64,000 nucleotides of DNA from Candidatus Iainarchaeum sp. (GTDB lineage: Archaea; B1Sed10-29; WALL01). The translations under genes were made by a program, and so were the position numbers. Positions 10,872 to 40,108 of this stretch are shown here, one piece after another (the stretch's first letter is position 1; each line of letters starts with the position of its first letter). The notes beneath the pieces are model-generated. The model was not told where the DNA came from and did no database searches. It saw only the letters and a list, made by a program, of their open reading frames with translations. Where the stretch lies: contig JAGMCR010000002.1 of assembly GCA_023129115.1 (NCBI GenBank), positions 64,001 to 128,000 of the forward strand, in the 5' to 3' direction.

Positions 10872-10944
10872 GCCTCGGTAGCTCAGCCGGTAGAGCGGCA
10901 GTCTCGTAAACTGCAGGTCGGGGGTTCAATTCCCTCCCGAGGCT
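10872..10944 (+). tRNA. tRNA-Thr(CGT); anchor of the cassette array
   Basis: Full cloverleaf: acceptor GCCTCGG/CCGAGGC, D-stem GCTC/GAGC, anticodon stem GCAGT/ACTGC with loop CTCGTAA, TTCAATT T-loop. Confidence 0.97.
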
Positions 10945-11060
10945 CTGACCCTACGGTAGTAGAGCCTGCACCATAAAATTGTTGATGATTGCCTATAACG
11001 CTTTCGTTGCAGCCCTAACTCCTTGAATTTCCTAGGAAATCCGCGGAAACTGGAGGACGC

Positions 11061-11279
11061 TTAATAGAATTCTTCTTTTGGCTTTCCAGTCTGCTTGATT
11101 ATGTGCTTTATCACAAAAACAGTTATGGTTGTGTGGTGCGGCACTCACGTTGTCAACACTTTTTTCTTTGACACTTGTTTCTTGTAAGTGATGTGCTTGC
11201 TGGACCTGGCTTTCTTGAGGCCATTGTCCTTGAGTATGCCCTCGACCTTACGCCTTGACAGCTGGCGAAGCCCTGCCAT
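11061..11279 (-). pseudogene. hicA: HicA-like toxin with in-frame TGA
   Basis: Manual translation MAGLRQLSRRKVEGILKDNG...SSKHITY...LTT*VPHH...IIKQTG. Confidence 0.7.
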
Positions 11280-11345
11280 GATGGGCAACCTCCGGCAAAG
11301 AAATGGGTATGCTACTCAATGAAACAGAAACCGACATCATTGTTT

Positions 11346-11525
11346 TTAGGGTGTGGGCTTGGGTGTGTCCGGGTCTTTCATATACTCGTTAACCAATTCC
11401 GCCATATTTTCCTTTACCTCTTTCTCGGTTTTTCCTTGTGTGGCCACGTCAAGAACAGGGCAAGAAGCCACAAACCACTTATCCTCTTTAGTAACGATTA
11501 TTGGTAAAGGAATAGCTTGTTTCAC
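11346..11525 (-). CDS. hicB: HicB-like antitoxin (59 aa, possibly truncated by frameshift)
   Basis: Manual translation ...KEDKWFVASCPVLDVATQGKTEKEVKENM. Confidence 0.75.
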   Translation of the reverse strand: MKQAIPLPIIVTKEDKWFVASCPVLDVATQGKTEKEVKENMAELVNEYMKDPDTPKPTP

Positions 11526-11596
11526 TGAAAATCACCCTCTGAAATAGGTTATCAAACCCGCGCTATTTAAAAGTATCCGCAAAAAAGAGGTGCTCC

Positions 11597-12250
11597 TTGG
11601 TCCTGCCAAAGTTATTAAAGAACCCCACACAATATTCTAGCGTGCCTGGAGATATCATCCCTGAAAAGAAGACTAAGACACAAAAAGCGATTAGGGCACT
11701 CTTTGCTTTTGGTGAGAAGCAGCGGGAGCTACCTTACGTTAAGACCAGCCGTCCAGGACACTTGGTTGCGCGGAGTATGAAGCGTGCTAACGAGCTGGTT
11801 GAACAAGCAACAACTATTTGGGAAGAAACGAAGGACAAGGAACAAAGCGGCAGGATTGGGCCGTGGGGAAGTGGGTTTAAGATAATTTACCCACAGGATT
11901 CTCGCCTTAGGGGTGAAGTGTTCCATGAGCTGAAGAGGATAACCCGCGACCTGAAAAGGGCGAGTTCGCAAAAACTTTCTGAAGAAGAACTGCAGGAGGA
12001 AGCTGCGCGGCTCAAGAATTTTTATACTCGGGGAATTCCATCCGGTCGCACGCCCGAAGCCGAGGCGAAGGCAGACGCTATGCTCACAGACGAAGAGAAA
12101 GCAATCCTAGGGGAACTCGGTTTGGACGAGGACAAGTACAACGAGCACGTCCAACACCTCGCCAGCGCCCTGGAGTCTTCACACGAGGACCTTTACGAGC
12201 TGATGGTACACCTTATAAAAGAAGGAAAAGAGGTAAAGCTGCTCAAATAA
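11597..12250 (+). CDS. hypothetical protein
   Basis: 217 aa ORF, GAGGTG RBS and TTTAAAA box upstream. Confidence 0.65.
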   Translation: MVLPKLLKNPTQYSSVPGDIIPEKKTKTQKAIRALFAFGEKQRELPYVKTSRPGHLVARSMKRANELVEQATTIWEETKDKEQSGRIGPWGSGFKIIYPQDSRLRGEVFHELKRITRDLKRASSQKLSEEELQEEAARLKNFYTRGIPSGRTPEAEAKADAMLTDEEKAILGELGLDEDKYNEHVQHLASALESSHEDLYELMVHLIKEGKEVKLLK

Positions 12251-12328
12251 CTCTTTTATGTGCAGACCCTCAATATAGTGTAAAAGCCCCACCCCGTTTT
12301 TTAAAGAATCCCGCACAACATTCTAACA

Positions 12329-12796
12329 ATGGCAAGAACACCTCAATGGATCAAAAACCTGGGCGGTCACGCAGGCGAGTTATACGTCGCGGCTGAACTA
12401 TCTAAACGTGGAATACCCAATGCATTGCTCCCCGAGAACTTTTCTGACGATGATATTTTGATTGCGCAGAAAGATGGAAGTGAAATTGGCTATATCCAAG
12501 TAAAGTCCTGTCACCCAAATCGTTCCGACTCCTTCATTCTTCGCTACACTGAAGAAGAGTGGACAAAAGCAAAAAGTAACGAGTACGTGGTTTTAGTGTA
12601 CTTGGGGACTCCCGAAGAAAACGAATCCCCACGTTATTGGATAACAACAAAGAAAAAAATGGGAAAAGCATGTGTTGAACACGGGGCACACGGAACCAAA
12701 AACTGGGAACGCCGCTTTTGGATGAAGACTATGGAATCAGACTACAAAAAATGGGAGAATAATTGGGGGCTCTTTAAGAAGTACCTTCCTAAGTGA
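12329..12796 (+). CDS. PD-(D/E)XK family nuclease
   Basis: GHAGELYVAAELSKRG...DILI...IQVKS. Confidence 0.75.
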   Translation: MARTPQWIKNLGGHAGELYVAAELSKRGIPNALLPENFSDDDILIAQKDGSEIGYIQVKSCHPNRSDSFILRYTEEEWTKAKSNEYVVLVYLGTPEENESPRYWITTKKKMGKACVEHGAHGTKNWERRFWMKTMESDYKKWENNWGLFKKYLPK

Positions 12797-12820
12797 TTAA
12801 AAAAAAATGGAGAGATTCGT

Positions 12821-13453
12821 TTGAAGAAAATTAGTGTATCTGAACTGACTTTTGCGCAAATACGCGCAGCCTCCAAAGAGTTCAGAAAGCGCGAGGAGAG
12901 GGATTCAATATACAAAATCACTACAAAGCTCGTGAACGAGGCATGGGCCAAGAAAGGCAAGGGATTCACTCTCGCCGATGCCATTAGCGTGCTACTACTC
13001 GTTTGGAACCAGGGGTTCTACCGCTACGGAAGACTCAACTTCACTAAGTTCGATAAAGCTATCAAGAAGAACAAGCCACTACTGGCAAAGTTTAGGAAGC
13101 GAAAAATCGCAAGCTTCACAGCAAAGGATGAAACAACAATCAAGAAGCTATTCAACGATTTACTTGAGGCCACGTCCATCAAAACGAGGAAACAGAAGAA
13201 AAAGATGGTCAGCCCAGTCAGCGTTGCCAAAGCACTCCACATGATGGCTCCCAGATTCTTCCCGTTATGGGACGGAGCCATCGCCGTTGGATGGGGCTGT
13301 CGATTCAACCGGGACAACGCTGCTGACAAGTACCTGAAGTTCATGAGGCAAAACAAGGAACTGATGGGAAAATACAGTGGCCGCGGGCTAACCTTAAAAA
13401 TGATTGATGAATGTAGTTACGCAATATACACCGCGGGATGGTATCCACGATAG
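12821..13453 (+). CDS. hypothetical protein, possible HhH/glycosylase-like fold
   Basis: SVAKALHMMAPRFFPLWD motif; fold assignment is inference. Confidence 0.55.
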   Translation: MKKISVSELTFAQIRAASKEFRKREERDSIYKITTKLVNEAWAKKGKGFTLADAISVLLLVWNQGFYRYGRLNFTKFDKAIKKNKPLLAKFRKRKIASFTAKDETTIKKLFNDLLEATSIKTRKQKKKMVSPVSVAKALHMMAPRFFPLWDGAIAVGWGCRFNRDNAADKYLKFMRQNKELMGKYSGRGLTLKMIDECSYAIYTAGWYPR

Positions 13454-13536
13454 ACAGGTCATTTCCTAGGAACTTCCGCGGAAATGAGGTGTGTGAGGGG
13501 CAAAAACCCGTGTAGGCTCTACAGCCGTACGACTTG

Positions 13537-13552
13537 TTCCCTCCCGAGGCTC
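13537..13552 (+). repeat. att-like copy 2 of tRNA-Thr 3' end (left arm A upstream)
   Basis: TTCCCTCCCGAGGCTC exact. Confidence 0.95.
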
Positions 13553-13611
13553 TGTATCTCTGGTGCCAGAGCGCAAGCTAAATCATTCTTTTTTTTGTGC
13601 ACTTGCCTTTG

Positions 13612-14208
13612 CTAAAGCGACTTCGCGAACTTGTCCGAGGTGGTCATCTTTGCGTACAGCGGCAGTATGTCCATCATCGCGTCGTAGTTGCTGTCGGTGA
13701 AGCCGCTGGTCGCGTCCTTCAGAAGGGTCACGTTGTATCCCTTGTTGGCCGCGCGCTTAACAGTCGTTGCGATGACGTGCTCGGTGCACTGCCCGCTGAT
13801 ATATACGTGGTCGACTCCGGCCGAACGCAGTACTAAATCGAGGTCGGTTCCCTCGAAGCCGTCAGAGCCGTAGTTGATGACGATTACATCGTCTTTCTTG
13901 GGCTCGAGCTCCTTGATGACCTTGGCATCCCAGCTGCCCACCAAAGCTTTGTTCGCGTCTTTGGCTCCCTGCATGAGGGGGTAGTACTGGTTCTTGGGCA
14001 TTTCAGGATAGCCTGGTCTCCACGCGATGTTGACGAAGACGGTCAGCATCTTCTTCCTTCGGGCTGCGGAAAGCGCCTTCTTCGCCTTGGGTATTGACTT
14101 GTTCTTCTTGATTTGGGGGTACAGCATCTTGCCCCAAACGCCTTTGGGGTGGGCCACACCGTTTTGCCAGTGTAGCATTAGCAAAGCAGATTTTTTGACA
14201 TTAACCAT
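13612..14208 (-). CDS. isochorismatase/cysteine hydrolase family
   Basis: ALLML..QN, F.GTDLDLVLRSAGV...GQCTEH; catalytic residues appear partly substituted. Confidence 0.85.
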   Translation of the reverse strand: MVNVKKSALLMLHWQNGVAHPKGVWGKMLYPQIKKNKSIPKAKKALSAARRKKMLTVFVNIAWRPGYPEMPKNQYYPLMQGAKDANKALVGSWDAKVIKELEPKKDDVIVINYGSDGFEGTDLDLVLRSAGVDHVYISGQCTEHVIATTVKRAANKGYNVTLLKDATSGFTDSNYDAMMDILPLYAKMTTSDKFAKSL

Positions 14209-14259
14209 GATAATTCACCGAAAGCAAACAAGCTTCCGTGCAATAAAAACGTTTCGGTT

Positions 14260-14286
14260 GGGGTTCAATTCCCTCCCGAGGCTCCA
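14260..14286 (+). repeat. att-like copy 3 (T-arm plus acceptor strand plus CCA)
   Basis: GGGGTTCAATTCCCTCCCGAGGCTCCA; 25 nt identical to 10921-10945. Confidence 0.97.
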
Positions 14287-14359
14287 TTACTGCGTCAAGG
14301 AGCCCCTGCTCAATTCCGCACCAGTCTATAAATAGTCCTTTGAGCAGAGCCTCGGAGGC

Positions 14360-15529
14360 ATGAGGACTGACCCTTACAACACCGGCACGAAGCTAGTGAA
14401 TTGCCTTGAGCGGGTTAGGCAATCGCTTGACCTATGTAAAGCCAACAAGCGGCTGATTCTTGAGTTCCACGCCGAGGCCGTTGCCCGTGGCTTGTCGGAA
14501 AAGCGGTGCCTTAAGTACGTGAGTACTCTCCGCAACCTCGGAACCCAACTTGGAAAGCCCTTTAACAAGGCGGACAAGCACGACATCATTCGCTTGCTCT
14601 CTTGGCTTGAGTCAACCGCGTACAAGGAGTGGACGAAGCACGACTACAAAGTCATTCTGAAATCGTTTTACAAGTGGCTGAACGGTGGAGAAGAGTATCC
14701 AAAGGTTGTTTCGTGGGTAAAAACAGGGATGAAGAACGGCAACCACATGCTGCCCGAGGAATTGCTGACCGAGGAAGACGTGCGTGCTTTAGTTGAAGCG
14801 TGTACGAACCCGCGCGACAAAGCTTTTGTCCTCACGTTGTACGAGAGTGGCTGCCGAATAAGCGAGCTGCTGACGTTGCAGGTAAAGAGCGTGAGGTTTG
14901 ACGAGCACGGCTCAATCTTGCGAGTGACTGGGAAGACCGGTGACAGGCGCGTGAGGGTGATTTCCGCGGCTCCGGCAATCGCGTTGTGGCTCGACAACCA
15001 CCCCACAAGGAAAGGGCACTTGTTTTGCTCCTTGGATGGGACGGGCATCAACTACTCGACCGCTAACGTGCTGTTAAGGAGGCTTGCTAAGAAGGCAGGC
15101 ATTACGAAGCGTGTTAATCCGCACGGTTTCCGCCACGCCCGGGCCACGTCGCTCGCGAACAAGCTCACAGAAGCCCAAATGAAGGAGTTCTTTGGTTGGG
15201 CTCAAAGTAGCGAGATGGCGGCTGTGTACGTCCACTTGTTGGGGCGGGACGTGGACGATGCCCTGCTAAGCATTTACGGCGTGAAGCCACCCGAGGACGC
15301 TCGCAAGGAGCGTTTCGTGCCTAGGGCTTGTCCCAGGTGCAAGGAGACTAATTCTCCTGCTAGTAAATACTGTTGCAGGTGTGGCAGTGCGCTCGACCTC
15401 GCAACAGCGCTAGAGGCTGATGACAAGCACAAGGAAGCCGATGCATTGATGAACGAGCTCATCAAAGACGACAGGATAAAAGCGCTTCTATTGGAGCGGT
15501 TGGTTGCCATCCAAGCAGAGAATCATTAA
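14360..15529 (+). CDS. tyrosine recombinase/integrase with C-terminal zinc ribbon
   Basis: ESGCRISE (R), GKTG (K), HGFRH (HxxR), FGW, AVYVH (Y); CPRC...CCRC. Confidence 0.95.
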   Translation: MRTDPYNTGTKLVNCLERVRQSLDLCKANKRLILEFHAEAVARGLSEKRCLKYVSTLRNLGTQLGKPFNKADKHDIIRLLSWLESTAYKEWTKHDYKVILKSFYKWLNGGEEYPKVVSWVKTGMKNGNHMLPEELLTEEDVRALVEACTNPRDKAFVLTLYESGCRISELLTLQVKSVRFDEHGSILRVTGKTGDRRVRVISAAPAIALWLDNHPTRKGHLFCSLDGTGINYSTANVLLRRLAKKAGITKRVNPHGFRHARATSLANKLTEAQMKEFFGWAQSSEMAAVYVHLLGRDVDDALLSIYGVKPPEDARKERFVPRACPRCKETNSPASKYCCRCGSALDLATALEADDKHKEADALMNELIKDDRIKALLLERLVAIQAENH

Positions 15530-15990
15530 CCTTTTCGTTTGAGGTTGTTGTATATATTGAGTGGTTCAGCGCTCAAATTCTCGCGTTCCTGGCCTTGGTT
15601 CAACTGATTTTTTAGGAATTCAATAGCTGCCAAGTAGCTCATCGGGAGCGCATCAGAAGTGTTTTCTCCCCCTGTTCAGGAATCCACATTACGAAAAAAT
15701 TCGGATTTGAGAATGTTGTATTCTCTCTTGTATTAATGGGGCAGTTTTCGGTGCGGATTCTAAGGCGTTGCTAGTGATTGACCATTGTGTAATTAGGATT
15801 CTAATTATTCAGAAAGTAGGGGTTGTGTGAAGCTCGGGGGTGAATACTGACCCTGATGAGGGTTCTGCATTACGAAAAAATTGGGATTCGGAAGTTGGCC
15901 TCCTTTTAGTGATAGAAAATGGATTTGGCCTTAGTTCACGTTTAAACATAGGTTTTTATTTGAGGACTGCTTTTTTGGCTAAGGAGCGGA

Positions 15991-16665
15991 TTGCTGATGA
16001 CTGATACTTTAGTTGATGTTTTGCTGATGCCGAACATTATGGCACTATGGGTTCCAATAATCATAGCGGCCGCCTTAGTAATCCTAATGGGATTGGTTGT
16101 CCGCCACAAAAAAGTTTCTATATCTAAGTCTAAAAAATCGCCAGATAACAAAAAAGTTGCTTTCAGATCACTTGTGATTGTTGCAGTACTATCGTTGGTA
16201 TTTTTCTTTGTTGAACCCCAGATAATAAAAGGTCTCTCCACACCACTTTTAACAATCCCATTTAGTGTTGTCCCCGCTCTTCTACTCGGATTATTTTACA
16301 CTGGACTTCAATACACTCCCATAGAAATCAAATCAGACAAGAAGAAAGCGACGCTAACAGTTGATTTTATTACTATTAATCTATGCGCACTCTTCGCATT
16401 CTTGACATTGTTTAACTTCTCTCCTTATTTCCCCGGCGCGTTCACTAGCACGAGCAACATAGCAATCATTTTCATAATTGCGTTGGTACAGACTTTTTTG
16501 TTCTCGCTGATTGTGTTCGCTTCGGAAAAAGTAAAATTCATCAGACTAAAAAATTTCCTTGGGATTCCAAATTGGCTGATATGTGTTATACTCTTTATCC
16601 TGCCTTGGTTGTTTTTGATGTATGAAAAAGCTATCCCAGTGGTGGGTGGCCTCAGGACCCTATAA
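15991..16665 (+). CDS. multi-pass membrane protein
   Basis: About 6 hydrophobic segments; start uncertain. Confidence 0.7.
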   Translation: MLMTDTLVDVLLMPNIMALWVPIIIAAALVILMGLVVRHKKVSISKSKKSPDNKKVAFRSLVIVAVLSLVFFFVEPQIIKGLSTPLLTIPFSVVPALLLGLFYTGLQYTPIEIKSDKKKATLTVDFITINLCALFAFLTLFNFSPYFPGAFTSTSNIAIIFIIALVQTFLFSLIVFASEKVKFIRLKNFLGIPNWLICVILFILPWLFLMYEKAIPVVGGLRTL

Positions 16666-16756
16666 TCAAAAATGCCTAAATCGGCATTTGTTTAAACGTT
16701 TGGACGATATGTATTTATTCTGCAAGCGCTTTTTGTTTGAGTCGGGGTGTTCTTCA

Positions 16757-19570
16757 ATGAAGCGAATGTTAGATGCATCTAAGGGCTCAGTTATAGTGGT
16801 GGTTTTTATCCTACTCTTAATTGTTGGGGTTTATGCGTTTGCTCCGTGTCCTGTTTCTCCACCAGTAAACGAAGGTGACCCACTGCCAATACCTTGCTTT
16901 GAAGAAGGTATGTGCATGGGTGGTTGTTGCTGCTATGATGGTTATCTTCTTCTCGAAAGGAATACTACTGAAGAACAGCCCAGCGCGATTACAGGTATGA
17001 TGGTAGCAACCGCACCTTTAGAAGGCAATGCAATTGAGCCCCACAAAGTGGTTAGTTTGGTTGGTTTTGAAGGCTATGACAAGAATAGGGACAAGGTTGC
17101 GGATTCCATGCAGAACGGTGTTTACTTAGAGGGCGCTACAAAAGAACTATTCACTGTTGCTTTTGACCACAAACCAACAGAAGAAGACAAAAAACTGGTT
17201 AGAGATATGGGTGGGGAGGTTGTTTACGATTTCTCATTGATTTACGCTTTAACAGTTAGGATACAACCAACCAAAATAACTGAGTATGCAGCAGCCAATC
17301 CACATGTAGTTATCGTGAGTGACCCCCGTGTAACTAGATCACTGAAGATATACCGCACAGCAAAAGTAGTTCGTGTTCGACCTCTAGTTTGGGAAACCTA
17401 TGGCTACAATGGTAGCGGGGAAGTAGTCACAGTAATGGATAGTGGCGTAGATGACTCCCACGCAGATTTACAAGGCAAAATAAAAAACTGGATGGACTGC
17501 AATCCTGCAGGATGCACTACTATTGGTCAGACACTGCATGACAACGTGGGCCATGGAACGAGTATTGCGGGGATTATTGTGGGGTCTGGGACGCAGGTGG
17601 GTGGTTCTAGTGGAGTAGCCACAGTGAACATTATGATTCATAGCCGGTTTACGGGCGAAGGCGGAGAAGTATGGGGTGGCTATTTTTCAGTGGATACTGA
17701 TGATAACACCCATTCCATTGACGGAACCCTTAATTGGGAGGCGGCTGACGGGCAGGACAATTACACAATAAAAGTAACCAACTCTACAGGGCTACCAAAC
17801 GGTGTTATTGGGGACGAAACTTCCGATTCAGACCCCTTAACCTTAACCACCAACTCATTCACAGAAACCAGTGAAATCCAGTACAAGTTTTACGTTAGCG
17901 CAGAGAGTGGCAATGCACATAACAGCACTGATGAAGCCTATTTCGCGCAAATGAGTACACCTATTGAATCGGTGGGGGATAGTTATAACCTCATGAGGGG
18001 ACTGGCACCAGGTAGCGAGCTTGTTTCCGTGAAAGTTGTGCCAGATGATAATGACATAGCTCATTTATGGACTATGAATAATGCCTATGATTGGATTGGG
18101 TCTAATTCTGAATCAGATGGCGTTAAAGTGGTTTCCATTAGTTTGGGTGGGACAACCGCTGACCCTATTGAATCAAAAGTCATTAGTAACACGATAGACA
18201 AAGGGGTTCTGCCCGTTGCAGCAACAGGTAATGATAACGGTGTTATCGACTACCCTGCTAGGTATCCTGAAGTGCTTGCTGTGGGGGCGATTGACAGCGA
18301 TGGAGACGTGGCGGATTACAGTAATTACGGGAACTCAAGTGAAGGCTCTGAAAAATGGCCCGATGTTGTTGCTCCCGGTGGGTCAAGCTGGTTCACTTAT
18401 GAAAAATACCCTGTTTTAACACTCGACACAAACGACGCTGAGTGTGTGACGAACACAGGCCTAACTACATGCGAAAGTTTCTCTGAAGAATACACTAATG
18501 ACTCCATCTATGCGTACGGTACTTCCATGGCTGTCCCCCACGTATCCGCGATAGCTGCCTTGATTGCTGAGGCGAAGGGGAGTTGGACTTACAACTCTTC
18601 TACTGACCCGTTGTGGGTAAAAATGGTTATTTCGATGACGGCTTGGGAGACCAACGAAACCAACCGTGGTTCTAAAGACATCTATGAAGGCTATGGAGTA
18701 GTCGCTGCCGACGCGGCAATCGAAGCGGTTATCTTCAACCACACGCTTGGGGACATTGAGTCAGATACTTTTGGCTCGGGATTGACTGACAAGAAGGTGT
18801 GGGCCCGCGAAGTTTCGCCGGGAGACAAGGAAATTGATTTCACGCTGGTGGTGCCAAGCGGCGCGGACTACGACCTCTACCTTTACAACAATACTCCTGA
18901 CCAGTACGGCCAGCCACAGATACTGGACAATTCGACAACTGCTGCGACCGGCGGCACAGAAAGCATTACCTACAACTTTTCGGCGAGTCAGGAAGCGTAT
19001 TTGGTGGTGAAGTGGGTCAGCGGTAACGGAGCATTTACTTTGTCTAGTGTGGAAGACAAGGACAAAATGAGTTTGATTCAGGGTTGGAACCAGTTTTCGT
19101 TCCCGAAGCTTCCGGCGAACAAGACTGTGGCCAACGTGTTCTCTTCAATTAGTGGTAGTTATGACCGGATAGATGATTACATCGCTAACAACAAGTCGTG
19201 GCGGATTTACGACGTAGCTGCAATTGGCTATTCCATGACGTTAAGCAACATTGAGGGGGGCAGGTCTTATCGCATTCATATGAACCAGGCCGACACAATT
19301 GAGTTCAGCGGCACGGACGTGGCGCCAATCAATATCTCGCTTTATGAGGGCTGGAATTGGCTCGCTTGGCCAGGCGAGACGGAGGCAATCGCCAGTGCGT
19401 TGAGCTCAATCGACGGGAGCTACAACAGAATAGATGAACTCTACGCTGGGGAGTGGGAAATTTATGATAGCTCCATCCCCGATGAGTACGACCAATCCCT
19501 GGACTACATGAAAAGAGGCAGAGGGTACGTAATTCTCATGAACTCTAACGACACACTCGAGGTGAATTAG
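16757..19570 (+). CDS. secreted S8 subtilisin-like serine protease
   Basis: VMDSG, HGT, GTSMA catalytic triad; N-terminal signal; C-terminal L..GWN repeats. Confidence 0.92.
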   Translation: MKRMLDASKGSVIVVVFILLLIVGVYAFAPCPVSPPVNEGDPLPIPCFEEGMCMGGCCCYDGYLLLERNTTEEQPSAITGMMVATAPLEGNAIEPHKVVSLVGFEGYDKNRDKVADSMQNGVYLEGATKELFTVAFDHKPTEEDKKLVRDMGGEVVYDFSLIYALTVRIQPTKITEYAAANPHVVIVSDPRVTRSLKIYRTAKVVRVRPLVWETYGYNGSGEVVTVMDSGVDDSHADLQGKIKNWMDCNPAGCTTIGQTLHDNVGHGTSIAGIIVGSGTQVGGSSGVATVNIMIHSRFTGEGGEVWGGYFSVDTDDNTHSIDGTLNWEAADGQDNYTIKVTNSTGLPNGVIGDETSDSDPLTLTTNSFTETSEIQYKFYVSAESGNAHNSTDEAYFAQMSTPIESVGDSYNLMRGLAPGSELVSVKVVPDDNDIAHLWTMNNAYDWIGSNSESDGVKVVSISLGGTTADPIESKVISNTIDKGVLPVAATGNDNGVIDYPARYPEVLAVGAIDSDGDVADYSNYGNSSEGSEKWPDVVAPGGSSWFTYEKYPVLTLDTNDAECVTNTGLTTCESFSEEYTNDSIYAYGTSMAVPHVSAIAALIAEAKGSWTYNSSTDPLWVKMVISMTAWETNETNRGSKDIYEGYGVVAADAAIEAVIFNHTLGDIESDTFGSGLTDKKVWAREVSPGDKEIDFTLVVPSGADYDLYLYNNTPDQYGQPQILDNSTTAATGGTESITYNFSASQEAYLVVKWVSGNGAFTLSSVEDKDKMSLIQGWNQFSFPKLPANKTVANVFSSISGSYDRIDDYIANNKSWRIYDVAAIGYSMTLSNIEGGRSYRIHMNQADTIEFSGTDVAPINISLYEGWNWLAWPGETEAIASALSSIDGSYNRIDELYAGEWEIYDSSIPDEYDQSLDYMKRGRGYVILMNSNDTLEVN

Positions 19571-19597
19571 AGGGGGATACTTGACCTGGTCAAGCTG

Positions 19598-32867: not shown

Positions 32868-32874
32868 CGCACAT

Positions 32875-32935: not shown

Positions 32936-33015
32936 GTACCTCTGCGGCTAGGACCAAAACCCTTAAATAGTATTGTTACTGTAATATTAACATATTGTTA
33001 ATTTGGGTGTAATCA

Positions 33016-33513
33016 ATGAAGGGTCTTTCGGGTAAGGAGTTGGAGATGGTCTCGTTTCTCGAGCTGAAGGAAAAGTATTTTTTCACGAGGAGCGACGTGA
33101 GGCGATTTTTCAAGAGCGAGAACGAGATGAACGTCTACCTGCACAGGCTTAAGAAAAAAGAAAGAATCGTGAAGCTGAACAGAAGCAAGTATTTCCTTGT
33201 CCCAGTGAAAGCGTTCGGGGGCTTCTGGGCAGAGCACCCCCTCGTGATTATTGATGAAATCTTTAACGGGGAGAACTACTTCATTAGGGGGATGGCTGCA
33301 GCACATTACTGGGGGTTGATAGACCAGATTCCCACGCAGGTAGAAGTGGCTTGCACGAACAAGCAAGGAAAGAAAAAGATTTTTGGGTTCATTATCCTGT
33401 TCAAGAGGGTGAGGCCAGCAAGCATGAAGGGCTTCGTGAAGAGGAAAATCGGGAAGCATCCTTTCCGGATAATGCCAAAGAAGGGGGTTGAGGAATGGCT
33501 GAAATCTCGTTGA
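33016..33513 (+). CDS. abiEi: type IV TA antitoxin, AbiEi-like
   Basis: wHTH-like N-terminus, AAAHYWGLIDQIP; upstream of AbiEii. Confidence 0.8.
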   Translation: MKGLSGKELEMVSFLELKEKYFFTRSDVRRFFKSENEMNVYLHRLKKKERIVKLNRSKYFLVPVKAFGGFWAEHPLVIIDEIFNGENYFIRGMAAAHYWGLIDQIPTQVEVACTNKQGKKKIFGFIILFKRVRPASMKGFVKRKIGKHPFRIMPKKGVEEWLKSR

Positions 33514-34256
33514 TGAACACGGCAGAACTAAAGCACGTTGCCGGAAAAATGGGGTTCAACTTAATCTACCTGGAAAAGGATTATTTCCTGACGCTGCTGC
33601 TGTATTTGCTCAGGGACATTAGTGGCATTTGCTTCAAAGGCGGCACTGCATTGAACAAGATATTCCTCAATCACACGCGCCTCAGTGAGGACCTGGACTT
33701 CACGTGCACTGGCGACTTAAAAAAAGTAAAAAAGGAAGTGCTGGAAGTACTGGGAGAAAACAAAAGCATTTTCACTCGTCACGAGTTTGATAACCAGACA
33801 CAAAACTTCTTCCGCCTAAAAGTATTCTACAAAAGCGATTTCTCCAAGAACAGCTACGTGGTTCTTGACGTGAACAGCAAAGCATCGGTTCACAAGAAAC
33901 CAAAAGCAGAAGTAGTGCCGCACTTCTATGAATCTATTCCACAATTCAAGGTTAAGACACTGGCACCTGAAGAACTTGTAGCTGAAAAAGTGAGGGCACT
34001 GATAACCCGGAACCAGCCCCGGGATTATTATGATGTCTACACTCTCCTGCAAAATGGTTACAAGGTGAACAAAGCCCTGCTAAGAAAAAAGTTGGCCGAA
34101 GCAAATGAATGCTTTGATATTGACAGGATATTCGTAAACGCCAAGAAGATTTATTCAAAGTGGGATGAGGATGTTGCCCATTTAACAAACAAACCAGTAA
34201 CGTACACCGCTGCCATCAAGGCTCTCCAGAAAGAGTTCGGGTACAAGAGCAAATAA
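33495..34256 (+). CDS. abiEii: AbiEii nucleotidyltransferase toxin
   Basis: EKDY, FKGGTAL, RLSEDLDF, AEK, RDYYD. Confidence 0.92.
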   Translation: MAEISLMNTAELKHVAGKMGFNLIYLEKDYFLTLLLYLLRDISGICFKGGTALNKIFLNHTRLSEDLDFTCTGDLKKVKKEVLEVLGENKSIFTRHEFDNQTQNFFRLKVFYKSDFSKNSYVVLDVNSKASVHKKPKAEVVPHFYESIPQFKVKTLAPEELVAEKVRALITRNQPRDYYDVYTLLQNGYKVNKALLRKKLAEANECFDIDRIFVNAKKIYSKWDEDVAHLTNKPVTYTAAIKALQKEFGYKSK

Positions 34257-34401
34257 CAGGCACCTCGTTTCCGCGGAGCTTTCTGGAAAGCAAGGGGGGC
34301 ACCCCCGCGCGTCCCCCGACGTTGGCCTTAAGCCAACGTCCAGCTGCAACGCCCTCCCCGCTTGGCGCCTTCGGCGCAGAATCTAGAGCCACACGACTTG
34401 G

Positions 34402-34415
34402 CCCCCCTTAGGCTC
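34402..34415 (+). repeat. degenerate att copy 17
   Basis: Arm A-like GCGCAGAATCTAGAGCCACACGACTTG then CCCCCCTTAGGCTC. Confidence 0.65.
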
Positions 34416-34447
34416 TAATCTCGCTGTGTTTCCGGGGCTCTTGCTTT

Positions 34448-35116
34448 TCAGCGCCAGCTTATCTCGCCTGTTTTTAGGACAGAGCCGTCGTTCATGTCTA
34501 TGTACGCCACCAGTCCTTTCCCCCCTTCGCCGCTGACAGGGCCCAGCCTTATGTCATAAACCGGATAATCAGCGACCAGGTAATTGTAATCTGCCGTGAC
34601 CGACATTGCCCCCAGGCCTTCCAAACCAGTTTGTTGCTTTGCTATTTCAACGGCTTCCGGGCTATCAATGTTCCACTTGGACGTATCCGCCAGTCTTTTC
34701 CCGGCGTGTTCTTCCCAGCTGCCCTCGCTTATCTCCATCGCGTCTTTGCCCTCGTAGCACCCGAACCCACCTGAGAGCAGCTCGCCTTTGTTTATGACCG
34801 CGAAGACGAGCGTGAACGTGTTGTCAGACTGCTTTTTCTCGAATGTCACTATCCACGTATCGCTCCTGCCGTCCTCAACCGCCGCGTGGCCTTTCTTGTG
34901 CCCGACAACGGTTCCTCCAGCCCCTATATCGCGGAGGTGCACGTCACCGAACTCGGCTGACGCGCGCTCGTAAGCCATGTCAAATGCTTCCCTGGCCGTT
35001 ACTTCATTCACCGGAGCCGCGGGTGCCTTTGCCCCCTCTGCCCCCTCGCCTGCTCCCTGGACGCAGCCCATCGTAACTGCAAGCACTAACAGCAAAACCA
35101 ATAATGATTTCCTCAT
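34448..35116 (-). CDS. hypothetical lipoprotein
   Basis: MRKSLLVLLLVLAVTMGC lipobox. Confidence 0.75.
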   Translation of the reverse strand: MRKSLLVLLLVLAVTMGCVQGAGEGAEGAKAPAAPVNEVTAREAFDMAYERASAEFGDVHLRDIGAGGTVVGHKKGHAAVEDGRSDTWIVTFEKKQSDNTFTLVFAVINKGELLSGGFGCYEGKDAMEISEGSWEEHAGKRLADTSKWNIDSPEAVEIAKQQTGLEGLGAMSVTADYNYLVADYPVYDIRLGPVSGEGGKGLVAYIDMNDGSVLKTGEISWR

Positions 35117-35198
35117 CAAAAGACCTCCAGCAGGAGGATACGCCGAACGCCTATAAAAAGGCACTCTTTGGGCCCAGGCTCTAGACCCGTGCGATTTA

Positions 35199-35216
35199 TT
35201 CCCTCCCGAGGCTCCA
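35199..35216 (+). repeat. att copy 18 (left arm A, right arm B)
   Basis: TTCCCTCCCGAGGCTCCA. Confidence 0.95.
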
Positions 35217-35309
35217 TTACCACGTCAAGGAGCCTCTGCCTTTTTTGCATGAGGGAAGTTTATATATGCTCACTGTGGCAAGAAGATACATAATAGAGGA
35301 GGATTTAGT

Positions 35310-35924
35310 TTGTTTGATTTGATCGATTTTTTAGAGGAACACTGGAGAGCGGTTGGCATTGCTTTAATAATCTTCCTTATATCCTGTATCTTCACGCTTG
35401 CCTCAATCTTAATTGGACAGATGGAACCGGTAGTGGATATTCTAATAACAAATGGTTCTCCACATTTCATTAGTTTTGTTACTTTTTCATCGTCAATGAC
35501 CAACATCTTAACTACTATGGGCTGGCTAATTGCTTTTTGTTGGATGGCCGCTGTTTACTTGAATGAATTGGCGATATGGAACTATGGAAAAGCAAACGAA
35601 GAAAAGTTTTATTTGGGTCCGGGAGATGATAACGAACATTTTGACAAGCATGGAGAGAAGTATCACCCGAAGAAAGAAAAGAATCAGGAAATGACAATAA
35701 TGGCTGATGGATTACTCGAATTCAAAAGAATCCTGCTCGCTGTAGTTTATGTGGGCATAATCCTATTTGCGATAGGAACAATTTTTAGTTTGGATAGTTT
35801 AACAATGTTCTATTTGGGGCATATCAGCTTTTCGTTTGTTAGTTTATTTGTTATGATGGCGTTCAGCATTTTTAAATTATACCCTAAGATTGCACCATCC
35901 CACAGAACCGATGGAGAGGGTTAA
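35310..35924 (+). CDS. hypothetical membrane protein
   Basis: About 4 TM segments, AT-rich DNA. Confidence 0.65.
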   Translation: MFDLIDFLEEHWRAVGIALIIFLISCIFTLASILIGQMEPVVDILITNGSPHFISFVTFSSSMTNILTTMGWLIAFCWMAAVYLNELAIWNYGKANEEKFYLGPGDDNEHFDKHGEKYHPKKEKNQEMTIMADGLLEFKRILLAVVYVGIILFAIGTIFSLDSLTMFYLGHISFSFVSLFVMMAFSIFKLYPKIAPSHRTDGEG

Positions 35925-35941
35925 GTCGCAGTTGGGATAAT

Positions 35942-37372
35942 ATGAAAAACACAAAGAAAGCATCAAAAACAGCGCATAAGAATCAACGCGATTCATTTGT
36001 TAGATCCCAAAATGAACATTGCTTTCTGAAAGATAAACAAAAAATAAAGTATCATTCCTTTATTCTTCTGGAGATAGTTCCTCTGGAAAGAATCCAAAAA
36101 CTTATCCATGGGCTTGACAAGCTGTATGCTAAAGCTTCAGTGGCATCTGAATCTCAATTGAGATATAAGGACATTCTTTCAACCAGTCATCTAAAACTCT
36201 TCGAGAGAAATACAATAAATTTACCGTATGTAGTTACAAAAAAACTCAAAGGCAAAATTTTGTCTAATTGTGTATTTCACGATCTCGGAGATCATATTCG
36301 GCACATCCATATCTCAATTTACAAAGTTTTGCCATCTACCGTGATTCTTCAGATTCAAGTACATCTAAATGATAAACTAAGCAAAAAGATAAACGATGTT
36401 ATTTATAGCTACCACAAAGAGATTAGGAAACCAGTTGAGACACCTAGGGGCAAATACACCCAGATATATGGCCCCCCTCATCAGAAAGAGAATCAAATTT
36501 ATCAAGTTAGAAAAGACTTGCACAAGGAAGCTATTGATTTCTTAAAAAAGTATTTCACAGGATATTTTTTTGAATTGTCTGATGAGAGCATCTCGGTAGT
36601 ACCCTCAATCGATTTGTTTTCTTTGGATTATCCTAACGAAGATGGCCAAATTTTGGATTGGGGCGATAAAAACCATGGATTCTTTCAGTGTTTCAGCACA
36701 TATATCGGGCCGTGGGATTCTTTTAAGTACAAAAACTACCTGTTTTGTCTTGAATCCAAAAGAAACGCCAAGTTTGAGAATTATCTGATATTTGCCAACA
36801 GAAAGACCACATCGAATAATATGTATCCCGATATTGATGCTTCCATTGAAGAAACCCTTAATTTCTGTTCCTTTGATTTAGTGGCCATTAACAGGTGGAT
36901 TAAAGTTCAAGAAGAGATGGTAGGAACGCTTAATTCAACCGTGTCGAGGGAAATATCTCAGATACAACAAAATAGATTTAGTAAAGCTATAGAAACCAGA
37001 AAATCTGTTCTTAAGAGTATTTTTCCCTTTGAACGCTTTGCAACAGAGTATGTAAGATACAAAATGATTCCTGATAAATTTGAATTTAAAAGCCTTAAAG
37101 ATGAGAGAGCCCCCGACAAACAAATTGACTTGTTCAATGGATTGAAAGAAGGAATCACTGCGAAAATTACGGAACTACATGAATTGATTAATGGATTTAC
37201 AAGACAGCATGAAAGTATTATGGCCTTAAAAAATCTGGAATTCAGTAAGAATATGCAAAACCTTATTATCATATTGACAATAGCTCTTATAGTGTTAACG
37301 ATAATCCAAATAGGCATAGGGGCATATGGATTAAAAACACCTGGTTTAATAGTGAGATTTCTCTTCGGATGA
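35942..37372 (+). CDS. hypothetical protein with C-terminal TM helix
   Basis: 476 aa ORF in AT-rich DNA. Confidence 0.7.
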   Translation: MKNTKKASKTAHKNQRDSFVRSQNEHCFLKDKQKIKYHSFILLEIVPLERIQKLIHGLDKLYAKASVASESQLRYKDILSTSHLKLFERNTINLPYVVTKKLKGKILSNCVFHDLGDHIRHIHISIYKVLPSTVILQIQVHLNDKLSKKINDVIYSYHKEIRKPVETPRGKYTQIYGPPHQKENQIYQVRKDLHKEAIDFLKKYFTGYFFELSDESISVVPSIDLFSLDYPNEDGQILDWGDKNHGFFQCFSTYIGPWDSFKYKNYLFCLESKRNAKFENYLIFANRKTTSNNMYPDIDASIEETLNFCSFDLVAINRWIKVQEEMVGTLNSTVSREISQIQQNRFSKAIETRKSVLKSIFPFERFATEYVRYKMIPDKFEFKSLKDERAPDKQIDLFNGLKEGITAKITELHELINGFTRQHESIMALKNLEFSKNMQNLIIILTIALIVLTIIQIGIGAYGLKTPGLIVRFLFG

Positions 37373-37416
37373 TAACTCGGGGGTTATCCTCTAATCCACC
37401 TACCCGTCTGAGCTTT

Positions 37417-37538
37417 ATTCCGCACCAGTCTATAAATAGTCCTTTGAGCAGAGCCTCGGGGGCATGAGGACCGACCCTTACAATACCGGTACGAAGCTAG
37501 TGAATTGCCTTGAGCGGGTTAGGGGGTGTAGAGCCAAC
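37417..37538 (+). pseudogene. 5' remnant of the integrase with its promoter
   Basis: Near-identical to the integrase upstream region and first 20 codons (MRTDPYNTGTKLVNCLERVR, ATG 37464). Confidence 0.9.
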
Positions 37539-37615
37539 TTTATTAATAGAGGCGTGCATAAAGCCAGTAGAGGGCAATTTATTTATATAGCCGGTTCATT
37601 TGTATGGCTTAGAGG

Positions 37616-38350
37616 GTGAACAGAGAGATGGTTGGCGCAGTTATGGATTCGCAGTACGTACTGAACACTTACTCACCAGAATTAAGTCGTGCTATCTTCT
37701 CAATCCAAAGCCCCTTAACACAGGGCTACACCTACTTGCGGAGGAACCGCAAGGCCAAGACCGTCGAAAAGCTCTTTGAAGAGCTTGACATGCTCACACA
37801 CGCAGAGAAAGAAGAATTGATAACCGAGTTAATTGCGTACCTCCCCAAAGACTCCAGCATGTCCGAGTTCGAGAGAGCCAAAAAAGAGCTCGCGAACCTT
37901 GACAAAAACGCCAAGATAAACAACTTGCTGAAAGACCTAAAGGTTAAGTACGAACGGCTAAGCCAAAAAGACAAACTAGAAATATTTAAGCTATCAATAT
38001 CAAAAACAACGCCCACCCTAGTCGCGCTCAGGGACTTCATATCCGAGAACATGCTTGAAGCAAAAGACATCGAAGCACTCATGGTCATAGACCAAGCGGT
38101 TTACGTCGCTGGAACGCTATGCGACGAGATACTGAAAGCAATTGAAAAGAACCAAGACGAAAGAGTGGAACTACTTCACGCTTTCTTGTTTTTCCTTCTC
38201 CTGGAGCTAGAAGCGATTCGCCGCGGCACAGTCGAGCCCGAAACGCTTTACGACAATATCGCGTTCATCACGAGCTTCACAGACAAGACCCGTGAAGAGC
38301 GAAGCATTGAAATCAAGCAAAGCGTGTTCGGGGTAGCGGGAGTAGCTTAA
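37616..38350 (+). CDS. hypothetical protein
   Basis: 244 aa helical ORF coupled to the next gene (TAATG). Confidence 0.7.
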   Translation: MNREMVGAVMDSQYVLNTYSPELSRAIFSIQSPLTQGYTYLRRNRKAKTVEKLFEELDMLTHAEKEELITELIAYLPKDSSMSEFERAKKELANLDKNAKINNLLKDLKVKYERLSQKDKLEIFKLSISKTTPTLVALRDFISENMLEAKDIEALMVIDQAVYVAGTLCDEILKAIEKNQDERVELLHAFLFFLLLELEAIRRGTVEPETLYDNIAFITSFTDKTREERSIEIKQSVFGVAGVA

Positions 38351-39027
38351 TGAACTCCATAGACTCGAACGTGGTCATTGCAGTAGCGAACCCGTTTGAC
38401 TACTCCCACAAGACATCAGTCAAAACAGTCAAGAACCTAGACGAGCTGCTCGTCCTCCTTAACGTGTTCACGGAAAGCAAGGCAACCATACAACGGAAGT
38501 ACAACAAGTCGCTCGCGAAGTCGGTAACGGAAATAAGAAAAATCACGGCCGAGAGGAACTCCCTGCTCTTCGGCAAGCTCGTTGTCCAAGCCCTCGAAAA
38601 ACTCAAGAAAAACAACCCAAATCTAGAAGGCTTCATAGACCTCGTCTACTCTGAATTCCGGACCTGCGAAAACCAAAAGGACATCAGCGCAGCCATGAGC
38701 CGACTAAACGTATTTGGAGTAGCCTTAATCAAGTCACTGGAGGATGTCCTGAGGAAAGAGCGCCCAGACATTGAGTTTTATGAGCCAACCGAAGAGTTCA
38801 ACAAAATGCACCTAAAAGTCTATGACCTGATTGCCGGGTCATATTTCCAGGACCGAAACGACAAGCTCATCTACACCGACTGCGTGGCCCTCGCGCAGAT
38901 TGAAAACGACAAGCTCACGTTCCACACGTTTGACGAGGAGTTCCACAAGACCGCGAAAAGCACTAATGCTTCACTACCCCAGAAATACTCCAAATTAGTG
39001 GATTTCAACAAGCTAAAACCAAATTAA
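38350..39027 (+). CDS. PIN-domain-like protein
   Basis: IDSNVVIA...D.ND...HTFD. Confidence 0.7.
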   Translation: MNSIDSNVVIAVANPFDYSHKTSVKTVKNLDELLVLLNVFTESKATIQRKYNKSLAKSVTEIRKITAERNSLLFGKLVVQALEKLKKNNPNLEGFIDLVYSEFRTCENQKDISAAMSRLNVFGVALIKSLEDVLRKERPDIEFYEPTEEFNKMHLKVYDLIAGSYFQDRNDKLIYTDCVALAQIENDKLTFHTFDEEFHKTAKSTNASLPQKYSKLVDFNKLKPN

Positions 39028-39054
39028 ACGGGGACACTTGACCTAGTCGAGCCG

Positions 39055-39067
39055 CCCTCCCGAGGCT
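39055..39067 (+). repeat. att copy 19 (left arm B)
   Basis: ACTTGACCTAGTCGAGCCG CCCTCCCGAGGCT. Confidence 0.9.
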
Positions 39068-39109
39068 TTTTATATTTTAACCGCGTAACTGCTTGAGCGG
39101 GGTGCGTTT

Positions 39110-40045
39110 ATGGACTATCAAAGATTCATAACAGAAAAAACAAAAATGATTTCTGATGCCGTTGGGGGCGGCGTTGCAATCAATGCCCTGTCCGGGGGAG
39201 TGGACAGTTCAGTTGTTACAGTGCTTGGCCACAAGGCAATCGGCGACAGGCTGAAGACTTATTTTGTCAACAGTGGGCTGATGAGGGAGGGCGAGGCCAA
39301 GCAAGTCGTGGACTGCTTTGCAGGGCTCGGGATAGAAGTCAATGTGCTCGAGGCGCAGGAAGAGTTCTTCAGTGCCCTGAAGGGGCTGGAAGACCCCGAG
39401 GAAAAAAGGAATGCAATCACCAACAGTTTTTATGCAAACGTTTTCAGCAGGCTTGTCAGGGAAAGCGGGGCAAAGACCCTTCTGCAGGGCACCATACTCA
39501 CTGACGTTGACGAGACAGTGGCGGGAATAAAGAGGCAGCACAACGTCCTGGAGCAGCTTGGGATTGACACCGAGAAGGAATATGGCTACAAGGTCCTTGA
39601 GCCACTCATTGAGCTGAGGAAGGACGGCGTGAGGGAGCTTGGGAAAGCGCTTGGAATGCCAGAAGACGTCTTCACGAGGATTCCCTTCCCCGGCCCTGCA
39701 CTGGCCGCCAGGGTGATTGGGGAGGTAACGCCCGAAAGAGTGGGGCTGGCCAGGAAGGCGACAAAAATAGTTGAGGAAGAGCTCAAGGACTCAAACGCAT
39801 TCCAGTATTTCGCGGTGCTCATGAGCGACAGGGCCACGGGAATGAGGGAAGGGAAGAGGGCGTTTGGCGAAATAATCGTGGTAAGGTGCGTGGAAAGCAT
39901 TGACGCGCGAACCGCAACCCCAACGCAGCTGCCCTGGGAAAAGCTAAAGGCAATAGAGCAAAAGATTACGTCTGAGCTGCCGGAAGTCGTCAGGGTCCTG
40001 TACGACCTAACCCCAAAGCCGCCCTCGACAATAGAATTCGTATAG
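39110..40045 (+). CDS. guaA: GMP synthase ATP-pyrophosphatase subunit (subunit B)
   Basis: SGGVDSS, PFPGP, YDLTPKPPSTIE; no glutaminase domain. Confidence 0.92.
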   Translation: MDYQRFITEKTKMISDAVGGGVAINALSGGVDSSVVTVLGHKAIGDRLKTYFVNSGLMREGEAKQVVDCFAGLGIEVNVLEAQEEFFSALKGLEDPEEKRNAITNSFYANVFSRLVRESGAKTLLQGTILTDVDETVAGIKRQHNVLEQLGIDTEKEYGYKVLEPLIELRKDGVRELGKALGMPEDVFTRIPFPGPALAARVIGEVTPERVGLARKATKIVEEELKDSNAFQYFAVLMSDRATGMREGKRAFGEIIVVRCVESIDARTATPTQLPWEKLKAIEQKITSELPEVVRVLYDLTPKPPSTIEFV

Positions 40046-40096
40046 CGCATAAGCTTCTATGGTGTCTCCTGAAACAATTGGATGGGAATGCAAGGC

Positions 40097-40108
40097 CCCC
40101 CCCGAGGC
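40097..40108 (+). repeat. degenerate att copy 20 (distal end)
   Basis: CCCCCCCGAGGC; the nearby GCACCAAACTATTTATAGAACTT also follows site 4. Confidence 0.6.

Follow-up and report, generated by a model that had tools for sequence, protein, structure and literature searches.

The DNA considered here is a 64,000-nt stretch (the window; contig C12:64001-128000) from an assembly of Candidatus Iainarchaeum sp., a DPANN archaeon (1.25 Mb in 19 contigs, 88.6% complete; G000 hereafter). It carries a tRNA-Thr(CGT) gene followed by an island of about 19 small modules (0.17-5.3 kb, with 0-4 open reading frames, ORFs, each and on both strands), most of which are separated by copies of the 3' end of this same tRNA (Table 1). 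The repeated core, CCCTCCCGAGGCTC, corresponds to the final 14 nt of tRNA-Thr(CGT). With at most two mismatches, it is found 16 times in the window including the tRNA's own copy, i.e., 15 extra copies, all on the + strand and from 10932 to 40110; 0.46 matches are expected by chance and none of 100 dinucleotide shuffles reached 16. The core is not equally common in the rest of the genome, as 13 of the 16 matches with 0-1 mismatch in the whole assembly lie in the island, the other three being tRNA-Thr(GGT) and two copies on contig C13. A tandem array of tRNA-Thr 3'-end copies on the + strand had been described in an earlier, sequence-only reading of this DNA, and the counts bear it out; the core coordinates given there were off by 0-11 nt because a few flanking bases had been counted in. 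That reading also placed the copies always between genes, with 0-4 genes per module in either orientation, and the ORF map agrees on both points; the degenerate core at 40097 is intergenic provided that the start of TauE is at 40165, the point from which homology to a relative extends.

The extent of the island was determined by comparison with G002, which, like G001, belongs to the same genus. In G002, the gene order is HD protein, tRNA-Thr(CGT), 5.4 kb of unrelated DNA, DUF1003 and an alkylation-repair gene, and the 5.4-kb spacer displays neither a tblastx match to the window nor a second copy of the core. Proteins encoded in the left flank (window 8417-10864) are 65-94% identical to those of G002, and those of the right flank (40906-42132, DUF1003 and alkylation repair) 75-81% identical, while nucleotide similarity resumes at about 40920, directly past the TauE stop codon. 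Backbone synteny thus stops at the tRNA and is restored at about 40920, which defines the island, and the two relatives differ in content exactly at the tRNA end. No att (attachment site) copy is left at the right border. The island is foreign in composition, with a G+C content of 0.489 versus 0.56 for the genome and values of 0.41-0.65 for individual modules, and accounts for 2.4% of the assembly.

The sequences flanking the cores sort into three classes, A, B, and C, with left arms following the cores and right arms preceding them. A arms are inverted repeats of GGCTCTAC..CCGTA, A-right having in addition, at a distance of about 70 nt from the core, a TTCCGCGGAA-type motif, and C arms are inverted repeats of GCTCCTTGACG; both A and C arms are found only together with the Thr core. 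The junctions 32104 and 32930 also retain the distal portion of A-right, and palindromic variants of A-left follow the cores 13539 and 40097. Thanks to these flanking motifs, the degenerate junctions that the sequence-only reading had listed at 24953, 32104, about 32930, and 34402 can be recognized as real. An A-right arm precedes both the core at 34402, which has three mismatches, and that at 24953, which has a one-base deletion. At 32104, where the core shows a deletion and mismatches, a truncated A-right arm is found, and the 24 nt before the core are identical to the distal A-right arm at 24870-24893. Finally, at 32930, the core has been deleted between two GGCTCT repeats and A-right and A-left-like arms are kept on either side.

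Within modules, left and right arms are paired. When the reverse complement of the left arm is compared with the right arm of the same class, 17/20 (M1) and 18/21 (M4) positions match for A, and 14/14 (M9) and 11/11 for C, versus matches over only 5-8 nt in A-versus-C control comparisons. Cognate left and right arms are present in 10 of 19 modules (M1, M3, M4, M5, M6, M7, M9, M11, M15, and M17), and at least four modules without an integrase retain an intact pair of arms, namely M1, M4, and M7 (type A) and M9 (type C). Across junctions, the families are combined freely (A'/C, C'/A, A'/B, B'/A, C'/B). Arms that are paired within modules and independent across junctions are the signature of separate circular elements integrating serially: this is the pattern left by independent circles each with its own attP, and it is unlike a segmental duplication. 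M1 and M4 resemble each other in their right 173 bp (93% identity) and differ in their genes. No fewer than three att families make use of this one core, namely A, C, and that of M2, whose right end (14260-14284) is 100% identical to 10921-10945 over 25 nt, a longer att identity to the tRNA 3' end. In at least three modules, a TATA-like box is found after the left arm. The A-left pattern gave no match in metagenome contigs and viral contigs, nor did A-right in viral contigs or C-right in metagenome contigs; the 16-nt core was found in two unrelated viral contigs, corresponding to a tRNA-Thr(TGT) gene and to a non-tRNA site without arms.

As the sequence-only reading had it, there is a single intact integrase, and this is true of the whole assembly, in which PF00589 matches one place and no other tyrosine recombinase was found. 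The gene lies in M3 (cores 14271 and 19598) and starts 75 nt past the left core of this module; its frame is open and uninterrupted by integration. Its best match in NCBIfam is XerA_Arch, with 131 bits, under the cut-off of 220. A copy that is 85% identical is present in G005, a genome of another genus whose backbone proteins are about 48-67% identical to those of G000, and the same C-right arm and core are found about 5 kb downstream of it. Homologues were found at 39 loci of other archaea, including Micrarchaeota, Aenigmatarchaeota, Methanococcoides, and others; in 12 of the 30 loci examined (nine short or partial matches being left out), the gene starts at most about 270 nt downstream of a same-strand tRNA, which can be Thr, Leu, His, Ser, Asp, or Tyr. 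No relative of the protein was detected in the viral contigs searched. Its position 75 nt from a core, the G005 copy, the shared C-right arm and core, and the tRNA-adjacent homologues identify it as an element integrase. M3 thus combines the features of an archaeal class II-type tRNA-targeting element, i.e., an intact tyrosine integrase, tRNA 3'-end repeats, and an integrase beside attL, and is the sole autonomous-looking element of the island. Its integrase, a member of the C family, is probably the enzyme that acts on C-type ends. Within the order, PF00589 was matched in 3 of 13 genomes, in all cases by members of the element-integrase family, and a XerA-type recombinase was detected in none of the 13, even those that are 96-98% complete.

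A relic of the integrase gene is present in M17, with 96% identity to 14313-14419 along 107 nt. In the intact gene as well as in the relic, the integrase start is immediately preceded by an inverted 10-mer of the core (14346-14355 and 37450-37459, respectively), which is also the 5' acceptor strand of the tRNA. A near-identical stretch precedes the G005 integrase. This 10-mer may be an integrase binding or autoregulatory site. A split integrase of the SSV (Sulfolobus spindle-shaped virus) type hidden in the A arms was considered and rejected, as PF16795 has no match in the genome and the arms are non-coding with TATA-like boxes. Likewise, no serine recombinase was matched in the G000 genome.

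Table 1. Coordinates of the features discussed in the text; positions are those of the window unless a contig of G000 is named.
Feature	Position	Strand	Content
tRNA-Thr(CGT), attB	10872-10945	+	ARAGORN; Rfam 70.7 bits
Whole island	10946 to about 40920 (29,975 bp)	+	borders by synteny with same-genus G002
M1, A-type	10946-13552	+	A-left, three ORFs of unknown function, A-right and core 13539
M2	13553-14284 (+)		isochorismatase-family gene (-); left end is a palindromic A-like variant
M3, C-type	14285-19611	+	C-left, integrase, 224-aa ORF, 982-aa S8 subtilase, C-right and core 19598
Tyrosine integrase, 389 aa (in M3)	14360-15529	+	PF00589 85.4 bits, profile positions 3-168 of 172
M4, A-type, 884 bp	19612-20495	+	TFIIB-like ORF
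M5 and M6, non-coding B units, 166 and 182 bp	20496-20843	+	hairpin modules, each core-bounded
M7, A-type	20844-24965	+	PadR regulator, FAD amine-oxidase/desaturase-like, CrtC/lipocalin hydratase-like, UbiA prenyltransferase; A-right and degenerate core 24953 at end
M8	24966-26350	+	DUF7118 protein; ends with A-right and core 26337
M9, integrase-less C-type	26351-27695	+	intact C-left and C-right; one gene, AAA_14/DUF4143 ATPase
M10 and M11	27696-28854	+	M10: B-left arm, endonuclease/exonuclease/phosphatase-family gene, core 28627; M11: 214-bp B unit, core 28841
M12 to M16	28855-35214 (+)		more decayed stretch; S9 peptidase (-), 294-aa ORF (-), membrane methyltransferase-like ORF, AbiEi/AbiEii, 238-aa ORF (-); junctions 30959 (C-right and core), 32104, 32930, 34402, 35201 (A-right and perfect core)
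M17, composite C-type, G+C content 0.41	35215-39068	+	C-right and core 39055 at end
Integrase relic (in M17)	37417-37538	+	promoter region and first 20-29 codons (codons at 37464-37538)
M18, second guaA C-terminal (GMP synthase) gene	39110-40045		followed by degenerate core 40097
M19	up to about 40920 (M18 and M19 together 39069-40920, + strand)		A-like palindromic left arm, TATA-like box, TauE exporter
A-left arm	follows cores 10932, 19598, 20830, 28841		
A-right arm	precedes cores 13539, 20482, 24953, 26337, 34402, 35201		
C-left arm	follows cores 14271, 26337, 35201		
C-right arm	precedes cores 19598, 27682, 30959, 39055		
B-left arm	follows cores 20482, 20648, 27682, 28627		
B-right arm	precedes cores 20648, 20830, 28841		
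Insertion on C13, 2.35 kb	G000:C13:141285-143690	-	between glmS and histone gene
Second small array	50517-51964	+	starts with intron-containing class II tRNA 50517-50634
Example short inserts at tRNA ends	G000:C4:6895-7220, C4:9253-9480, C13:81930-82311(-), C5:68800-69031(-)		

Together, the repeats, the arm pairing, the borders, the composition, and the single integrase therefore point to a tandem accretion island and not to an integron. With good confidence, we regard the locus as a tRNA-anchored island that grew as about 19 small elements integrated site-specifically, one after another, at the tRNA-Thr(CGT) 3' end of a DPANN Iainarchaeota host. In the mechanism that we infer, a circular element would carry an attP in which a 14-nt copy of the tRNA end is preceded by a right arm and followed by a left arm, and would recombine with the tRNA within the 14 nt, thereby regenerating the tRNA. 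The left arm would then adjoin the tRNA, with the right arm and the displaced 14-nt partial tRNA at the far side, and repeated integrations would push older modules outward; the order of these events, as well as any present-day mobility, is to be read with the same reserve.

That most modules are devoid of an integrase, as previously noted, is clear from the presence of one intact gene among about 19 modules. These integrase-less modules are a mixture of decay products and units with intact arms that resemble cis-mobilizable elements (CIMEs). Decay is visible in the integrase relic, in the core deleted at 32930, and in the degenerate cores 24953, 32104, 34402, and 40097, M17, with its relic of 20-29 codons within C arms, being an example of such a wreck. 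Integrase-less units of type C that have both arms would be excised or moved only by the M3 integrase acting in trans, a plausible mobilization for which M9 is the best candidate; for units of type A, any such mobilization would require a trans enzyme that is not encoded in the assembly. In agreement with the sequence-only reading, no primase/helicase (replication) domain and no transfer or capsid gene was recognized among the island ORFs, using Pfam for the main ORFs and PHROGs and NCBIfam for 10 ORFs without clear Pfam assignment.

Related arrays recur within the family, in G004. Exact copies of a core 12-mer number 16 in G000, 6 in G004, and 0-4 in each of the other 29 genomes, the six copies of G004 being shared between two arrays at intron-containing tRNA-Thr genes. 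One of these consists of the core and an A-left-like arm followed by AbiEi/AbiEii, whose proteins are 66% identical to those of the window, and a TauE that is 76% identical is found nearby. Identity of the G000 and G004 backbones is 41% for the HD protein and 65% for GlmS, and these comparisons suggest that modules may have been exchanged between the two lineages. In addition, A arms are present at another site of the G000 genome, in the insertion between glmS and the histone gene on contig C13. This insertion is made of a tRNA-Thr 3' fragment (no tRNA), A-left, a perfect core, and A-right with a degenerate core, and the final ~30 nt of glmS are duplicated in it, which looks like an integration into the 3' end of this gene. 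G001 and G004 lack the insertion, their glmS-histone spacers being about 57 and 29 nt, respectively; A-type sites are thus present at a second locus that is empty in these two genomes.

Several observations weigh against serial integration as the full account of the island. The arms of M12 are mismatched, A-left being associated with C-right, and a recognizable left arm is missing in six modules. Neither G000 nor G004 (98% complete) yielded an integrase that would go with the A arms; integrase-driven entry of the A modules is therefore deduced from their architecture only, and these modules are either stranded or dependent on an enzyme outside the bins. B units, which occur at several tRNAs with target-specific repeats, are a poor fit to a classical sequence-specific integrase. 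Lastly, in the sequencing run that is the probable source of the assembly, contigs end at every repeated junction, and the order of the modules is therefore that of the original assembly alone.

A wider reading would take in the island and the B units alike. At the level of the genus, recombinase-less units ranging from 60-nt hairpins to 4-kb cassettes would be captured in trans, and inserted or shuffled among many tRNA 3' ends, by the resident integrase, by one encoded on a plasmid or virus that was not binned, or by an unknown activity recognizing tRNA ends. We hold this to be possible but doubtful. If true, the Thr(CGT) locus would serve as the principal store of cassettes and as an archaeal functional counterpart of an integron or CIME array, and the B units would be the first miniature non-autonomous elements targeting tRNA ends, similar to miniature inverted-repeat transposable elements (MITEs).

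The sequence-only reading had gone further and proposed non-autonomous cassettes mobilized in trans, an archaeal functional analogue of the integron with tRNA-derived att sites. As a true capture platform, this would mean that the resident integrase routinely excises, shuffles, and reinserts dedicated cassettes. The likeness consists of one tyrosine recombinase for about 19 modules, most of them recombinase-less and in a row, with short same-orientation sites in between and the same 14-nt crossover sequence common to all. Four integrase-less modules have intact paired arms, including the single-gene M9, whose perfect C arms match those of the integrase-bearing M3, and content differs between relatives. 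In integrons, however, the IntI integrase is encoded outside the cassettes, beside a fixed attI and the array promoter, and cassettes are mostly single promoterless ORFs, co-oriented and with a palindromic attC at their end. Integrase family, integrase position, site structure, and cassette organization all fail here. The integrase lies within a core-bounded module, 3.4 kb from the tRNA and with two modules between, and it is of the wrong family, since integron-integrase models match part of the protein only, with 46.8 bits for TIGR02249 (cut-off 265) and 37.4 bits for NF011946 (cut-off 435). There are at least three or four arm families instead of a single kind of cassette site, and only C is linked to this integrase; modules carry 0-4 genes in both orientations, with TATA-like boxes after at least three left arms; junctions join non-complementary arms (5-8 nt between A and C) and are not palindromic as attC sites are. 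Besides the clear decay described above, G004 has arrays yet no tyrosine recombinase at 98% completeness, and no module difference was seen between three samples containing the array, two of which were partially covered. The integron analogy was thus not sustained, and we consider a platform of this kind unlikely.

B units deserve separate consideration, as they are a genus-wide hairpin repeat found at many tRNA ends and are distinct from the A and C att families. The B-right motif is present in 20 copies in G000, 22 in G002, 2 in G001, and in none of the other 28 genomes of the class, and no Rfam family was found for B units; those of M5 and M6 have an RNA fold z of -3.5. Each of the 10 strict B-left copies directly adjoins either the end of a tRNA or a copy of such an end. 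More generally, the last 12 nt of the tRNA (with at most one mismatch) are repeated 65-296 nt downstream at 11 of 45 tRNAs, with hairpin modules in between, versus about 0.03 expected by chance (37/4^12 per position x 300 positions x 45 tRNAs); in 10 of these 11 inserts, a hairpin of the B-right kind is next to the repeat. B units that are ~90% identical are found at different tRNA ends or copies (Thr, Glu, class II tRNA, Pro-type), with target-specific repeats, and inserts differ between G000 and G002 at the orthologous tRNA-Leu(TAA), Arg(CCG), and Pro(TGG). Moreover, G002 has its 22 B-right copies with no tyrosine recombinase detected (84% complete).

These data favor the idea that the partial-tRNA repeats come mainly from an unknown tRNA-end-directed mechanism that spreads 60-300-nt hairpin inserts, with the Thr locus as its hottest target. 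As an explanation of the island, this nevertheless appears quite improbable. A and C arms are family-specific inverted repeats found only with the Thr core, and C arms travel with the integrase across genera; the repeats flanking B units range in length between 10 and 19 nt, whereas a target-site duplication would be of fixed size, and the G000 genome has no match for Cas1 (PF01867), a reverse transcriptase, a Y1 transposase, or a serine recombinase. Serial integration remains our preferred reading of the island. The short tRNA-end inserts are the least explained part of these data and the most likely to hold something new. Four TnpB-like (Cas12f1-like_TNB) genes, at C3:10561, C3:79611, C3:102282, and C13:134192, are present in G000, and no B-right copy lies beside those on contig C3.

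Additional evidence was obtained from Logan contigs of three runs from one cold-seep study, which contain the array and were placed on window positions 10300-30299. In the probable source run, the depths of module contigs (16.4-21.3) equal that of a 33.8-kb backbone contig (19.2), which is consistent with modules that follow one another in a single genome and speaks against a chaining of strain variants. In the two further samples, of low depth, X2 and X3, pieces were found in 30/30 and 27/30 bins of the array, respectively, with no sign of differing module content, although cover is partial in these two. Joints indicative of excision, circles, empty sites, or core-to-core recombination were absent from the contigs of the three runs, which speaks neither for nor against mobility as contigs cannot show rare forms. 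Among rejected candidates, the joint from 14419 to 19634 was the relic contig and that from 20831 to 28814 corresponded to B units, both being explained by repeats elsewhere; the joint from 13209 to 25415 had a short side (20), and that from 11600 to 19585, in X3, had no core start. It is very improbable that single modules of different strains were chained by the assembly through shared 14-45-nt repeats: the genome is metagenome-assembled and no independent contig bridges the repeated junctions, but alternative alleles would have a fraction of the backbone depth, module pieces are present across the array in X2 and X3, and the junction repeats (173 bp at 93% for the longest, 22-107 nt for the others) are judged short relative to usual read or k-mer lengths.

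The locus is a dense and well-structured archaeal accretion island of an established type, tandem accretion at tRNA and tmRNA genes being already known. The tandem integrations known in archaea involve pairs or a few elements. Casposons have terminal inverted repeats and a fixed 14-15-bp duplication, and differ from what is seen here by their Cas1 integrase, for which PF01867 had no match, and by their fixed repeats, those of the short inserts varying from 10 to 19 nt. Archaeal tyrosine-recombinase elements form arrays by re-use of the same site (PMC6563490, PMC8371274). Class II (pNOB8-type) elements resemble M3 in that the integrase is intact after integration and the target is a tRNA 3' end with a direct repeat, and later loss of the integrase and tandem integration at one locus are known as well, the tandems being described without numbers (PMC8371274, PMC6563490). 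In a keyword search of open-access text, no publication came up that describes an equally dense array or arm families made of paired inverted repeats, nor any array of this sort in DPANN archaea; PMC8371274 does not contain the term DPANN.

In Prochlorococcus, serial integration at one tRNA pushes older elements inward, leaving fragmented integrases and partial tRNAs (bioRxiv 10.1101/2020.12.28.424599). These tycheposons are similar to the present island in forming tRNA-proximal islands by repeated integration, with adaptive and defence cargo, but they have a replication module (primase/helicase) and specific recombinase families, none of which was recognized here, and number about 1-2 elements per genome, as compared to ~19 junctions at one tRNA (same preprint). 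The ssrA locus of Dehalococcoides is another close parallel, in which 15 islands without integration module were proposed to be cis-mobilizable (McMurdie et al., 2011, PMC3146451). In this case as well, many tandem islands lie downstream of one small-RNA gene in a small genome and are bounded by 3'-end direct repeats (20 bp, over a dozen), with low GC, broken synteny, and no duplicate islands (PMC3146451). The differences are that the host is a bacterium, the target a tmRNA, and the integrase a serine (CcrB-like) enzyme, and that most islands there have kept an integration module of 6 genes (PMC3146451); here, in a DPANN archaeon, a tyrosine integrase is present in 1 of ~19 modules, the modules are much smaller (0.17-5.3 kb), and several arm families share one core.

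Streptococcus CIMEs have lost their integrase and kept attL and attR, and are mobilized by the integrase of a neighbor (PMC5704250). Loss of the integrase with retention of att sites is thus common to CIMEs and to the present modules, as is accretion in tandem at a target-gene 3' end, in which the related integrative and conjugative elements take part (PMC5704250). This hallmark, i.e., attL and attR kept with no integrase or transfer gene, is found in M1, M4, M7, and M9; an integrase of the same specificity is present in the array for type C (M3, with which M9 and M17 share arms), while none was found for type A in G000 or G004. CIMEs differ in being decayed conjugative elements of tens of kb whose mobilization was demonstrated experimentally (PMC5704250), whereas here the modules are tiny, without recognized transfer genes, and their mobility is only predicted. 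The idea that integrase-less modules between repeats of a small-RNA gene end are cis- or trans-mobilizable is already in print for these two systems (PMC3146451, PMC5704250). Short tRNA-end inserts, if truly mobile, would in turn be a kind of element for which no report was found in the papers compared here.

DPANN archaea have tiny genomes and are host-dependent, and how they gain genes is poorly known; in the present case, 2.4% of a 1.25-Mb genome corresponds to one integration hot spot. The cargo includes defence candidates (AbiE and the M9 ATPase, which is the PADLOC candidate PDC-S01), proteases, a carotenoid-type set, a second GMP synthase gene, and an exporter. The history of repeated gene capture in this lineage can thus be read from the locus. 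Moreover, with the paired arm families, concrete att substrates are at hand for an archaeal integrase, both for its own element and for integrase-less neighbors. The GMP synthase gene of M18 is only 46% identical to the other guaA copy of the genome (C13:59572-60513) and 46-48% identical to the copies of same-genus relatives, and is therefore a xenologue carried as cargo.

The cargo between 21604 and 26058 resembles a carotenoid-modifying set, with the FAD desaturase-like, CrtC/lipocalin hydratase-like, and UbiA genes followed by DUF7118. A combination of FAD desaturase-like, CrtC/lipocalin, and UbiA genes is typical of haloarchaeal bacterioruberin genes, and such a set is odd for a cold-seep DPANN genome. 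Downstream, M8 contains an arm-less core-like copy at 26066, within a hairpin. In M17, C-left is followed by 2.2 kb of very low GC with two ORFs, the integrase relic, two more ORFs, and C-right.

A second, small array is present in the window, about 10 kb past the right border of the island. It is headed by an intron-containing class II tRNA, which neither ARAGORN nor the Rfam gathering run detected and which was found in Rfam E-value mode. Downstream of this tRNA are, in order, a B unit, an imperfect repeat of the tRNA 3' end, an MNT/HEPN pair (PDC-M05-like), another repeat, and a B-left module.

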